Shown in pieces: positions 27,750 to 63,951 of a DNA stretch of 64,000 bases; the stretch's first letter is position 1; the number at the start of each line of letters is the position of its first letter. The translations under genes and the position numbers were made by a program. The stretch lies in the NCBI GenBank assembly GCA_000146465.1, contig CP001947.1, one strand, 5' to 3'. The notes below the pieces were generated by a model that saw only the letters and a program-made list of their open reading frames with translations, was not told the origin of the DNA and made no database searches.

Positions 27750-27822
27750 GGCCTCATAGCTCAATGGTTAGAGTGTCGGCCTACGGAGCCGAAGGTTGAG
27801 GGTTCGAGTCCCTCTGGGGTCG
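27750..27822 (+). tRNA. tRNA-Arg (anticodon ACG)
   Basis: Cloverleaf: acceptor GGCCTCA/TGGGGTC, D-arm GCTC-AATGGTTA-GAGT, anticodon stem TCGGC/GCCGA with loop CTACGGA, T-arm GAGGG-TTCGAGT-CCCTC, discriminator G. No encoded CCA. Confidence 0.85.
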
Positions 27823-28404
27823 GCTGTCTTTTGTGCTTCTTTTTTTCTTCCTAGACTTTTTCATCCACATCTCTAGTGCATTGCTTCTGTATCTGCCCTG
27901 CACATCTTCATCCAACGAGTTCCACATCTTAATGAACATACGAACGTTTTCTTCTGGAGACACATTTATGTCGCCACAGATGTCGAAGAGTTCGTTTACA
28001 AAGAAAAGATATCCTGAACACTCCCATCGCTGTATATCCCGTATTTTAACATATTTTCTTAGCTTCTTTATCGTGTTTGTATCATTGACTAAATTGCCGT
28101 CGTCACAGCCATCCAACTCATTGGCTTCCTCAAGATCTTTATTGCATTTTTCCACATACATATTCCTCTCCTCGTCCGGCATTTCCTTCCATACAGCCAT
28201 CATATTCAAGGCAGTATCGACACAACTTGTGTATTTGTAATTATTACTTTGGAAAAAGTCCCTGGCAAAGACCGTGAATGGAGATCTCTGCTTGGTAGGC
28301 ATTGAATACAAGGATTCAAAAAATTTCATCTCGGGGGTATGTATCTTCGAAAAATACACCAAAGGAATTAGATAGTACAGTAGAGGCCAATAAATAGAGT
28401 CCAT
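27781..28404 (-). CDS. HMG-box protein (divergent single HMG box with extended C-terminal region)
   Basis: HMG box PTKQRSPFTVFARDFF...WKEMPDEERNMYVEK. The hydrophobic first 25 aa suggest the real start may be M26 (about 28329). The last 14 codons (...RDSNPQPSAP) are encoded antisense to the tRNA-Arg. Confidence 0.6.
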   Translation of the reverse strand: MDSIYWPLLYYLIPLVYFSKIHTPEMKFFESLYSMPTKQRSPFTVFARDFFQSNNYKYTSCVDTALNMMAVWKEMPDEERNMYVEKCNKDLEEANELDGCDDGNLVNDTNTIKKLRKYVKIRDIQRWECSGYLFFVNELFDICGDINVSPEENVRMFIKMWNSLDEDVQGRYRSNALEMWMKKSRKKKRSTKDSRPQRDSNPQPSAP

Positions 28405-35927: not shown

Positions 35928-36004
35928 AGGAAAAAGCCTTTAGAATCCTTCATGATTAAATATTCATGATATTTATATGCCCATTGGTACATTTATTAGG
36001 CCTT

Positions 36005-36961
36005 ATGAGGATAACATCGTTCAATGTTAACGGGATCCGCTCCTTCAGTAAGTATATAATGAAGAGCCACAGGCTGAGGTTCAATGATTATGTCAAGGAA
36101 ACTCTCAAGGCAGACATTCTATGTGTTCAAGAAACCAGAGGAAACAAGAATGCCTTGAATGAGTTCCACTCTCTCAAGGACTACATCACATTTACAAGTA
36201 CAAACAAGAGAAATAGTGGAAGGTCGGGTGTTTCAACAATTGTATCAAAAAAACTGTATTGTCGAGGGATCCTCCCCTCGCCATTTTCGGAAGAAGGGAG
36301 ATCGTTGCTAACCGACCACGGGGATTACAAGGTCCTGAACCTGTATTTCCCCTTTTTCGACGAGAATTCCGGGAAGGATAAATCCGAAGTGATTAAGTTT
36401 TATAATGAAGTTGGGAGGTTTATTAGGATGCATGAAAACATGGTTATCTGCGGGGACTTTAATGCAGTATATTCGATTGTGGACCATTACCAATTCTACA
36501 ATGAACTTCTACGTATACAACGCATGGGGAGGACGGGATGGACGAAGGAAACAAGACGAATGAAGAAATGCCCGTCCAAGACCGAGCTTCCTTATGAATT
36601 TTGCAGTGAAGATGCATTAGAAGCCTATTTCTTTGAAGTACAACAAAGAAAGTGGCTAAAGAATCTAGTGGACTCGGGGGAGTATATAGATACTTACAGG
36701 ATTCTGCATACAAGGCCTGAGTCGTACACATGCTGGAACACCATGCTTAACCTGCGCCCTCGCAACTTGGGTACGAGAATAGACTACATTCTTATTCCAT
36801 CGGGTTTCTTCTACAAGCTCAAGGATTGCGATATACAACCTAAGATCTACGGAAGCGACCATTGCCCAGTGTACGCAGAGATGGATTTTAAGATCACAGA
36901 CGATGGAAATAACATCCTAGACAAAAGAAAAAACAACATACTTGATTTCTTTGGGTCCTGA
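36005..36961 (+). CDS. AP endonuclease, exonuclease III family (APE1/Apn2-like)
   Basis: MRITSFNVNGIR...DILCVQETRG...ICGDFN...YTCWN...GTRIDYIL...SDHCPV. An alternative ATG 13 codons upstream (35966) adds a hydrophobic leader. Confidence 0.8.
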   Translation: MRITSFNVNGIRSFSKYIMKSHRLRFNDYVKETLKADILCVQETRGNKNALNEFHSLKDYITFTSTNKRNSGRSGVSTIVSKKLYCRGILPSPFSEEGRSLLTDHGDYKVLNLYFPFFDENSGKDKSEVIKFYNEVGRFIRMHENMVICGDFNAVYSIVDHYQFYNELLRIQRMGRTGWTKETRRMKKCPSKTELPYEFCSEDALEAYFFEVQQRKWLKNLVDSGEYIDTYRILHTRPESYTCWNTMLNLRPRNLGTRIDYILIPSGFFYKLKDCDIQPKIYGSDHCPVYAEMDFKITDDGNNILDKRKNNILDFFGS

Positions 36962-37591: not shown

Positions 37592-38122
37592 TTAATGTCT
37601 CTTTAGCAAGGACTGATCAAATAGGAACAAACCTACGCCTTCTCCTCCACATCTTGTGCAGTTGACATATAAGTCGTTGAACTCCGAAATAGATTCTACC
37701 TGTTCGGCGATAAAATCCTCCAAGAATTGGACAATGGTCTCATCTCCTGCTTTTGCAGCTATTTCAGAAATAGTCAATATATTGTCAAGCACAGTCTGCT
37801 CAAACTCTTTGGAGGCCTTGAGAATATCACTTGTCTTTTCATACTTCTTTATGTCTGGAGCCTCTATGGTCCTGAACTCAATATTCAATCCTCTCATGTT
37901 CATAAAGTCAATGATTTTTTGTGCATGTTCGTTTTCCTCAAGACTGTTTTTCTTGAAGAAGCCAGCCAGTCCTTTGAGGCAGACATTGGGGTCTTCAAAA
38001 TGGGCAGCACATGCAGTGTAGAAGTAAAATGCATTGTACTCCAATAACAATTGAGAAGAGAGGAGTAGGCCTGCTTCCATTTTCCATTCATCAGTTGAAG
38101 CTTCTCTTGTCTCGGGATTCAT
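37592..38122 (-). CDS. ferritin-like protein
   Basis: Four-helix ferritin pattern. AAHFEDPNVCLKGLAGFFKKNSLEENEHAQKIIDFMNMRGLNIEF... and the C-terminal FLEDFIAEQVESISEFNDLY align with eukaryotic ferritin H/L (E-x-x-H ferroxidase region, FLE..FL.EQV). Anchored to the internal ATG (MNPETREA...). The track start 38290 would overlap Rqc2. Confidence 0.7.
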   Translation of the reverse strand: MNPETREASTDEWKMEAGLLLSSQLLLEYNAFYFYTACAAHFEDPNVCLKGLAGFFKKNSLEENEHAQKIIDFMNMRGLNIEFRTIEAPDIKKYEKTSDILKASKEFEQTVLDNILTISEIAAKAGDETIVQFLEDFIAEQVESISEFNDLYVNCTRCGGEGVGLFLFDQSLLKRH

Positions 38123-38213
38123 TGTATAGTAAACAAATATGTTGTTAAGAGTAGTTTCATCTTCTTTGAGATGATACTTACTCCAGAAATATTTGCAGAA
38201 AGAAAGAGCCCTG

Positions 38214-40160
38214 ATGAAGCAGAGATACACCTTTTTAGACATCAGAGCAACAGTCAACGAGTTGAAGCCTAGACTGGTGGGAAAGTTCATCCAGAACTTC
38301 TATACGACATCTCAGAGAATCATCTACATAAAGTTCAGTAACAAAGATATCCTCCTTGTCGAGCCGGGTGTTAGAATCCACTTGACGCAGGAGCATGACA
38401 TGGACATTTCCCATTTCTGCAAGATTCTGCGAAGAAAGGCCAGAAGAGACAAGGTTGTTGATATATATCAATGCGGATTTGATCGGGTGGTTGTTTTAGA
38501 GCTTGGAAGGCAGAAGATTGTATTTGAATTCTTTTCAGGGGGGAATATTTTGATTGTAGAAGATGGAAAGATAGCAGAAATATTTCGGGTTGTCAAGGAC
38601 TTAGATATTGTCAAAGGGTCAGAGTATGTGTTCAATAAGGTTGACTTTGACCTTAGCATTGATGCTTTTATCAAGAACGATCTGAAAGATTTTCTCCCCC
38701 TAGACGACCTCCTGGTCAAGAAGGTCTTGAACGAACTAGGCACCCGGATCAAGGCTGATCCTATAGACATGAAAAAAGCAGCACAGAACGGTATTCCGAT
38801 AAAGGAAGATGTCAAGAGCATATTCTTGGAGTTCATGAGTGAGTTCCGAAAGACGATGGAGGATATTCAAGGATATGGAGGTGTTATCATGGAAAAGGGA
38901 AAGCCATCGAATCTGATTCCATTTAAGGCTGATGGGGCAAAGGACTTCAACACATTTAATGATGCTGCAGAGTATTTCTTTCAAGGGAGAAAGAAATTTG
39001 GAAAGAACGATAGAGAGACAAAAGTGGATAAGGTGAGAAAAAGACAAGAAAACTATATGAAGGAGATGGAGCAGCAGGGAGAATGTTATAGGAAGAAGGC
39101 AGAGCTATTGGAAAAAAATGCGGATCTTGTTAACCGAATCCTGGAGATCTTCAAAGTTGTTAGAAAAAACAAAGTGAAATGGACGGATTTTGAAAAGTTC
39201 CGAGAACAAGAGAACAAGAAAGGAAGCGAGGTTTCCAAGGCTATTGTGAAGACGGATTTTGTATCCCACACATGTTGGATAACTTTAGAAGGAGAAGAGA
39301 TTCCGATTGATTTTAATATCTCACTATTCAATAATGTAAGCGAGTTTTATCAAAAAAGTAAGAAACTCGAAGAGAAGATTAGGAAGACTAGAGACAGTCT
39401 TGGAGAAGTGCTAAAGAAGATAGCGCCAAAGGTGGAGACTAAGAAAATCACAAGAACTCTGTATTGGTTTGAGAAGTTCCATTTCTTCTTTTCTTCAGAC
39501 GGTGTACTTGTGATCGGGGGGAAAACTGCCCAGCAGAATGAAATTCTTGTTAAGAAGCATCTAGAGCCTACAGACTTGTACTTCCATAGTGATGTACATG
39601 GTGCTTCAAGTATTATTGTCAAGAAGCCTACAGAGAAGACTATTGTAGAGACGGCATCGATGGCGCTTTGTATGTCAAGATGTTGGGAGACAAATGTTGT
39701 TTCTCCTGTATGGTATGTTTATGGTGAACAGGTTAGCAAGACGGCACCTTCAGGGGAGTATTTGGGAAAAGGGTCTTTTATGATAAAGGGAAAGAAGAAC
39801 TATGTGGATTGCCATAAGATAGAGTATGGGCTAGGATTGTTATTTCGAGTTTTCGAGGATATTGAAAAGCAGGTTGAAAACATGAAGGTTGATGAGAAGG
39901 AAAACCACAAGTTTGTGAGCGATCCGGAGGGGATGGAGATTGTCCATTCGATGCCTGTGTGTGGGCCTTGGAGTGTCATATCGACCTACAAATATAAAGT
40001 CAGGCTTGTGCCCGGAAGAGAAAGAAAAGGAAAACTGGTGCAGGAAGTATCGAAAAGATTTGTTGGGCAGGCGCCTGATAGCGAGAAGAGCTATGTGAGA
40101 AGTATATCGGTAGAAGAATACATTAACGTTCTTTTTGGAAATGTCCGAATAGGAAAATGA
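38214..40160 (+). CDS. RQC2: ribosome quality-control complex subunit Rqc2/Tae2 (NEMF; NFACT family)
   Basis: N-terminal FbpA/NFACT-N (MKQRYTFLDIRATVNELKPRLVGKFIQNFY...HLTQE). C-terminal NFACT-R (LYFHSDVHGASSIIVKKPT...WYVYGEQVSK). The track start is TTG. First ATG is at 38214. Confidence 0.75.
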   Translation: MKQRYTFLDIRATVNELKPRLVGKFIQNFYTTSQRIIYIKFSNKDILLVEPGVRIHLTQEHDMDISHFCKILRRKARRDKVVDIYQCGFDRVVVLELGRQKIVFEFFSGGNILIVEDGKIAEIFRVVKDLDIVKGSEYVFNKVDFDLSIDAFIKNDLKDFLPLDDLLVKKVLNELGTRIKADPIDMKKAAQNGIPIKEDVKSIFLEFMSEFRKTMEDIQGYGGVIMEKGKPSNLIPFKADGAKDFNTFNDAAEYFFQGRKKFGKNDRETKVDKVRKRQENYMKEMEQQGECYRKKAELLEKNADLVNRILEIFKVVRKNKVKWTDFEKFREQENKKGSEVSKAIVKTDFVSHTCWITLEGEEIPIDFNISLFNNVSEFYQKSKKLEEKIRKTRDSLGEVLKKIAPKVETKKITRTLYWFEKFHFFFSSDGVLVIGGKTAQQNEILVKKHLEPTDLYFHSDVHGASSIIVKKPTEKTIVETASMALCMSRCWETNVVSPVWYVYGEQVSKTAPSGEYLGKGSFMIKGKKNYVDCHKIEYGLGLLFRVFEDIEKQVENMKVDEKENHKFVSDPEGMEIVHSMPVCGPWSVISTYKYKVRLVPGRERKGKLVQEVSKRFVGQAPDSEKSYVRSISVEEYINVLFGNVRIGK

Positions 40161-63879: not shown

Positions 63880-63951
63880 GGTTGCGTGGTGTAATGGTTA
63901 TCACTTCAGACTCTGAATCTGACAATCTGAGTTCGAATCTCGGCGCGACCA
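63880..63951 (+). tRNA. tRNA-Gln (anticodon CUG)
   Basis: GGTTGCGTGGTGTAATGGTTATCACTTCAGACTCTGAATCTGACAATCTGAGTTCGAATCTCGGCGCGACC + A. Acceptor GGTTGCG/CGCGACC, anticodon loop CTCTGAA, T-loop TTCGAAT. Close to canonical eukaryotic tRNA-Gln. Confidence 0.85.

Follow-up and report, generated by a model that had tools for sequence, protein, structure and literature searches.

An H-chain-like ferritin gene, probably resident and vertically inherited, in the microsporidian Encephalitozoon intestinalis

How obligate intracellular microsporidia acquire iron is poorly understood. Ferritin is generally lacking in higher fungi and has been noted in part of the Microsporidia; besides some microsporidia, fungal ferritin has been reported only in the early-diverging lineages Mucorales, Spizellomyces and Allomyces (PMC4133162). 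The original prediction for the locus described here, made from the DNA letters alone, had likewise held ferritin to be absent from most Dikarya, which this published record bears out. Within Nosema, the Pfam ferritin domain PF00210 is present in aquatic and not in terrestrial species (PMC7616845), and the ferritin of Anncaliia algerae has been detected by proteomics in infected human cells, with an antioxidant role proposed for it (PMC4072689). Our literature search turned up no study of the biochemistry, structure or localisation of a microsporidian ferritin.

Two groups of described ferritins serve for comparison. Animal H-type or 'soma' ferritins (human FTH1, Dendrorhynchus zhejiangensis 7emk, Marsupenaeus japonicus 6a4u) share with the E. 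intestinalis protein the fold (TM 0.84-0.88, rmsd about 1.4 Å), the same seven ferroxidase residues, the length of the A-B loop, the E helix and a similar subunit size. The E. intestinalis protein differs from them in being only 27-38% identical, in carrying the extra cysteines C38, C48, C155 and C158, in a one-residue deletion in helix D after E135, and at the three-fold channel, where the equivalent of human H D131 is Gln132, a position that is variable among microsporidia; E135 itself, the equivalent of human H E134, is kept and is E or D in all aligned microsporidia. Prokaryotic Ftn/FtnA proteins belong to the same Pfam family and have the same di-iron ligands at 31-35% identity, but score lower than eukaryotic ferritins (about 77 versus 92-107 bits). 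Iron-responsive-element regulation is neither known nor expected for the E. intestinalis ferritin.

The gene lies in a stretch of 64,000 nucleotides of contig CP001947.1 (GCA_000146465.1), hereafter the window, whose features are collected in Table 1. Its protein is 100% identical over 176 aa to the NCBI entry 'soma ferritin [Encephalitozoon intestinalis ATCC 50506]', with no difference between the two, which identifies the genome previously described only as microsporidian-type. It is 79% identical to the 'ferritin' of E. hellem ATCC 50504 and 76% identical to the 'SOMA FERRITIN' of E. cuniculi GB-M1, both of equal length and both in the same position between an NFACT-family gene and an HROB-like gene. 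The gene is already annotated and known, and it encodes an ordinary ferritin. The earlier suggestion that such a gene is unexpected in a minimal parasite genome is not supported, since ferritin is annotated in three Encephalitozoon species, has homologues in at least five further named genera and is documented in print (PMC4133162, PMC7616845, PMC4072689).

Table 1. Features of the E. intestinalis ferritin locus and of the surrounding window (positions count from the first letter of the window).
Feature	Position	Strand	Details or basis
Ferritin CDS	37592..38122	-	531 nt; ATG 38120..38122, TAA 37592..37594; ORF list and sequence
Apparent N-terminal extension, 56 codons, judged spurious	38123..38290	-	overlaps NFACT codons on + strand
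Ferroxidase-centre codon span	37700..38041	-	alignment to human H chain
Ferroxidase codon E28	38039..38041	-	read in sequence
Ferroxidase codon Y35	38018..38020	-	computed from start codon
Ferroxidase codons E62/E63	37934..37939	-	computed from start codon
Ferroxidase codon H66	37925..37927	-	read in sequence
Ferroxidase codon E108	37799..37801	-	computed from start codon
Ferroxidase codon Q141	37700..37702	-	computed from start codon
Divergent intergenic spacer, 91 bp	38123..38213	.	between ferritin and NFACT/RQC2 start codons
NFACT-family gene (RQC2/Tae2/NEMF homologue), 648 aa	38214..40160	+	Pfam NFACT_N, NFACT-R_1, NFACT-C
HROB-like OB-fold gene, 185 aa	36982..37539	-	Pfam PF15072, 28.6 bits, under 30.8-bit cut-off
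APE-type nuclease gene (Exo_endo_phos)	35966..36961		adjoins HROB-like gene
tRNA-Arg(ACG)	27750..27822	+	
tRNA-Gln(CTG)	63880..63951	+	

Among 1.84 billion cluster representatives, 1981 ferritins were found at E ≤ 1e-3, and the closest named matches were other microsporidia: Nosema granulosis (48% identical), Astathelohania contejeani with two ferritins (43% and 37%), Cucumispora dikerogammari, Enterocytozoon bieneusi and Conglomerata obtusa. Ferritin is widespread in Microsporidia, occurring in at least five named genera beyond Encephalitozoon. The two A. contejeani paralogues (KAF7684636.1 and KAF7684633.1) are divergent, bear the source names 'soma ferritin' and 'ferritin heavy subunit', and lie a few genes apart on the same 91,588-bp contig, a situation that points to a lineage-specific duplication. 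A microsporidian-like ferritin of 194 aa on a Logan contig (P0076), which groups with C. obtusa in our neighbour-joining (NJ) tree, carries a hydrophobic N-terminal extension (MSKLWYLFSYLILFYYIISCVSPF...) resembling a signal peptide, a hint that in that one lineage the ferritin is secreted or confined to a compartment. A further match at 33% identity (P0011) sits on a contig with EF-hand/cNMP-binding and amine-oxidase/cytochrome b5 genes and appears to come from another kind of eukaryote.

The coding sequence comprises 176 codons and a TAA stop, and its start is an ATG internal to a longer frame; the original prediction had placed the gene and its reading frame correctly, but its length of 177 aa counted the stop codon. 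It had also entertained a 232-aa form from an upstream ATG, corresponding to the minus-strand ORF at 37592..38290. We rejected this form because the added codons overlap the NFACT coding region on the opposite strand and because stops break the equivalent upstream frame in four of four relatives (E. hellem, E. cuniculi and two more). Orthologues are called at 172-176 aa. Judged from these reading frames, the 232-aa form is an artefact of ORF extension and an accident of E. intestinalis.

The family assignment is carried by profile, structure and alignment. Searched against Pfam, as the original prediction had proposed, the 176-aa product matches Ferritin PF00210 at 104.9 bits (E = 4.4e-30; cut-off 24.5 bits) over profile positions 3-141 of 142. 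An AlphaFold2 monomer model built from 18 microsporidian sequences (pLDDT 93.4, pTM 0.87) has helices A (11-43), B (50-76), C (97-124) and D (128-157), a short helix E (162-173) and a long B-C loop at 77-96. In Foldseek comparisons with the PDB, it superimposes on invertebrate and human H ferritins at TM 0.84-0.88 and rmsd 1.3-1.5 Å. The four-helix signature noticed at the outset is thus borne out by profile, model and superposition alike. A sequence search of the PDB found 283 ferritin sequences at E ≤ 1 (best 3.2e-27); the best 60 of these 283 are all eukaryotic maxi-ferritins (E from 3.2e-27 to 4e-20), drawn from marine invertebrates, soybean, the frog M chain and the human and mouse H chains. 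The foremost of them, at E from 3e-27 to 1e-20, are animal and plant ferritins that form 24-mers. The predicted product is a eukaryote-type, H-chain-like ferritin subunit, and the gene is intact.

Three neighbouring classes were considered and set aside. Rubrerythrin PF02915 gives a marginal match (23.5 bits, cut-off 22.8) because the two families have a superfamily fold in common, and this match is overlapped by the far stronger ferritin match; the protein has one CxxC only (C155-x-x-C158) and no second pair of the kind that makes up a rubredoxin-like domain with two CxxC motifs. Dps proteins are 12-mer mini-ferritins that have no E helix and a ferroxidase site at the dimer interface; this assignment was rejected given the E helix, the intrasubunit H-type ligands and the exclusively maxi-ferritin character of the best 60 PDB matches. 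A bacterial-type Ftn was rejected on the A-B loop (FEDPNVCLKG), which is of eukaryote length where the bacterial loop is two residues shorter, and on helix D, which reads AEQVESI where bacteria have the W-F-x-x-EQ-x-EEE site-C motif, so that both EQxEEE and the W-F/W-Y pair preceding it are missing.

We then consider whether the iron-oxidising site is kept. In an alignment with the human H and L chains, seven of the seven H-type ferroxidase residues are identical (E28, Y35, E62, E63, H66, E108 and Q141, corresponding in order to human H E27, Y34, E61, E62, H65, E107 and Q141), a result that answers favourably the conservation check suggested alongside the original prediction. The E..H motif named there is E63-N-E-H66, and the C-terminal block it gave as FLE..F..EQV is present as F133-L-E-D-F-I-A-E-Q-V142, in which a single residue, not two, separates FLE from F. 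Across a 20-sequence alignment (13 microsporidian or microsporidian-like, six prokaryote-type and one unplaced sequence), three positions never vary (E28, E63 and E108) and three others (Y35, H66 and Q141) show at least 90% conservation, a pattern that marks a catalytic site under maintenance.

Conservation at these positions is not uniform within the genus. In the E. cuniculi orthologue, H66 is replaced by Gln and E62 by Asp (SLDENAQAQK versus SLEENEHAQK; window-equivalent codons 37925..37939, minus strand), two ferroxidase-region differences found in both sequenced E. cuniculi strains (L004:5001-5531 and L005:5001-5531), which encode identical ferritin proteins. His66 is kept in E. intestinalis, E. 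hellem and other close relatives, and C. obtusa has Ser there. Given the E. cuniculi substitutions, full ferroxidase activity may be dispensable in the genus.

A separate feature of these proteins is found at the turn between helices D and E, where the E. intestinalis protein reads N154-C155-T156-R157-C158 (37649..37663, minus strand). Among 18 microsporidian ferritins, Arg157-Cys158 hardly varies (at least 90% conserved), and the Encephalitozoon-like clade shares the motif N-C-x-R-C-G, a CxxC. Aligned animal ferritins have no cysteine at this turn, the human sequence being N-L-R-K-M-G. From known ferritin architecture, Arg157-Cys158 would adjoin the four-fold axis. The E. cuniculi and C. obtusa substitutions and these cysteines, together with the unconserved D131 channel position, would fit a protein that had kept the ferritin fold without its iron-oxidising function, as an L-chain-like subunit or one re-purposed, for example, for redox or metal binding through the lineage cysteines. 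We nevertheless regard this as improbable, as every ferroxidase ligand is intact in E. intestinalis and the six residues singled out in the 20-sequence alignment are invariant or nearly so. A more elaborate proposal, that microsporidian ferritins form a distinct monophyletic subclass that arose by ancient capture of an animal-host gene and in which Arg157-Cys158 acts as a redox-sensitive gate for iron release, is speculative and in our judgement quite unlikely to hold; were it true, the relaxed E. cuniculi ligands (H66Q) would mark a changed handling of host iron.

The chromosomal setting of the gene is conserved. The NFACT product read from the ATG at 38214 equals in length its E. cuniculi and E. 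hellem orthologues, and this start sets the spacer to the ferritin gene at 91 bp; the divergent pairing with RQC2 across about 90 bp, as first described, is confirmed by the NFACT domains on the plus strand. The spacer presumably holds both promoters. Aligned over three Encephalitozoon species, it contains a conserved block GAAAC...TTTGTTTAYT, 10-45 nt upstream of the ferritin ATG, and a GCCC/GGGC element adjoining the NFACT ATG. In E. intestinalis GCCC stands directly 5' of that ATG (38205..38216, agaGCCCtgATG), with GCCC/ACCC/GCCCC across E. hellem and E. cuniculi. Both the GCCC and the TTTGTTTAYT element are reminiscent of the short signals that have been described close to the start codons of Encephalitozoon genes.

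On its other side the ferritin gene is followed, 52 bp beyond its stop codon, by the co-oriented HROB-like gene. The orthologous neighbour in related loci carries a PF15072 match, and this 185-aa product is perhaps a DNA-repair factor of the OB-fold type that has escaped annotation. The order NFACT (divergent), ferritin, HROB-like, Exo_endo_phos is kept in E. cuniculi AL590446.1 and E. hellem CP002718.1, as part of a wider collinear order common to these two and the E. intestinalis window: VTC, PSF2/Sld5, CDT1, NFACT (divergent), ferritin, HROB-like, Exo_endo_phos, DnaJ-like, diphthamide-synthesis and RINGv genes. A relative whose ferritin is 69% identical also keeps the divergent NFACT gene, ferritin and the HROB-like gene in this order. 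In a relative with a 59% identical ferritin (JGI metagenome 3300073837, L001:1426-3500), a small gene and Exo_endo_phos still follow ferritin, but upstream, instead of a divergent NFACT gene, there is a 414-aa gene in the same orientation that matches no Pfam family, from which we conclude that the ferritin-RQC2 pairing is specific to the Encephalitozoon-like clade. Elsewhere in the window, the tRNA-Arg gene overlaps the 3' end of a 207-aa mechanical ORF at 27781..28404 on the minus strand.

Composition and substitution patterns bear on whether the gene is native. The GC content of the coding sequence is 0.405 and that of the window 0.406. Between pairs of Encephalitozoon species, non-synonymous differences amount to 0.13-0.16 per site versus a pS of at least 0.77 (pN and pS are reported rather than a dN/dS ratio, since synonymous sites are saturated), which indicates strong purifying selection on the ferritin sequence between these species.

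For the phylogeny, we built an NJ tree from the best 150 of the 1981 representatives together with the human H and L chains, a set that included no early-fungal sequence; its alignment of 157 columns and its long branches make it weak evidence for deep origin. The tree unites 25 microsporidian or microsporidian-like sequences in a single clade, which 159 of 200 bootstraps recover; for 17 of them the assignment comes from a name, from membership of a named cluster or from close relationship to the Encephalitozoon ferritins, and for eight from the tree alone. When the tree is midpoint-rooted, the clade adjoins six prokaryote-type Ftn sequences, a grouping found in only 53 of 200 bootstraps and best read as long-branch attraction. 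A profile built from the microsporidian alignment found 20 matches in a 5.8-billion-protein set, none of them fungal outside Microsporidia. One bacterial-type Ftn of spirochaete origin among the sequences, P0174 ('MAG: ferritin [Pleomorphochaeta sp.]'), scores E = 5e-35 against this profile, equal to the eukaryotic P0011, and profile scores therefore separate ferritin subfamilies weakly at such divergence.

Two of these results, the position of the long-branched clade beside prokaryote-type Ftn and the score of the spirochaete sequence, could be taken to favour recent acquisition of the gene from a host or bacterial source, or contamination of the assembly. The gene order, however, is kept in four species and GC is native; the prokaryote grouping has the low bootstrap count given above, consistent with long-branch attraction; and the A-B loop is of eukaryote length, with AEQVESI and no bacterial site-C motif in helix D. 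Because the sequences form one clade, with native composition and purifying selection, we exclude contamination or recent host transfer, and consider a recent foreign origin of any kind almost certainly wrong. The host or bacterial origin raised in the original prediction accordingly fails on a recent time-scale, on conserved synteny, monophyly, native composition and eukaryote-type features; of the phylogenetic comparison it had envisaged, the tree delivers the monophyly of the microsporidian sequences and speaks against recent transfer.

An older event is harder to separate from inheritance. The best named non-microsporidian matches are invertebrate (Lingula, Bemisia and Eurytemora, at 35-36% identity and E about 1e-21), marine-invertebrate ferritins are the best matches among solved structures, and the NCBI name 'soma ferritin' is itself derived from molluscs, all of which could reflect an ancient horizontal transfer into the microsporidian lineage from an animal host, predating the split of the sampled microsporidian families, in place of fungal or opisthokont inheritance. 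We hold this to be unlikely: an identity of 35-38% to animal sequences is not above what is expected of a divergent vertical orthologue, the microsporidia are nested in no animal clade of the NJ tree, and few of the best 150 matches are named, in a tree that, as noted, has no early-fungal member. The deep origin of the gene is either an ancestral fungal or opisthokont gene or a very early capture from an animal. Overall, with a probability of roughly 0.9, we favour the reading that this is a resident, vertically inherited, H-chain-like ferritin gene of E. intestinalis whose product would form a cytosolic iron-storage cage.

Under this favoured reading of a resident ferritin gene, we infer by analogy with known ferritins that the product assembles into 24-mers, acts as a ferroxidase, resides in the cytosol and has the physiological role set out below. 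The 176-aa subunit, four bundled helices followed by a short fifth, would assemble into a hollow cage of 24 subunits, in which Fe(II) would be oxidised at an intrasubunit di-iron centre (E28, E63, H66 / E63, E108, with E62, Q141 and Y35 nearby) and the oxidised iron laid down as a ferric oxide core. The E. intestinalis ferritin has no N-terminal signal or transit peptide and is thus presumably cytosolic in the parasite, where it would act as a buffer for host-derived iron, limit Fenton damage, and supply iron-dependent enzymes and the assembly of Fe-S clusters. On the origin of the gene depends whether ferritin was present in the fungal or opisthokont ancestor and disappeared in Dikarya. That a ferritin has been kept under strong purifying selection in such reduced genomes suggests that iron buffering is indispensable to these parasites.
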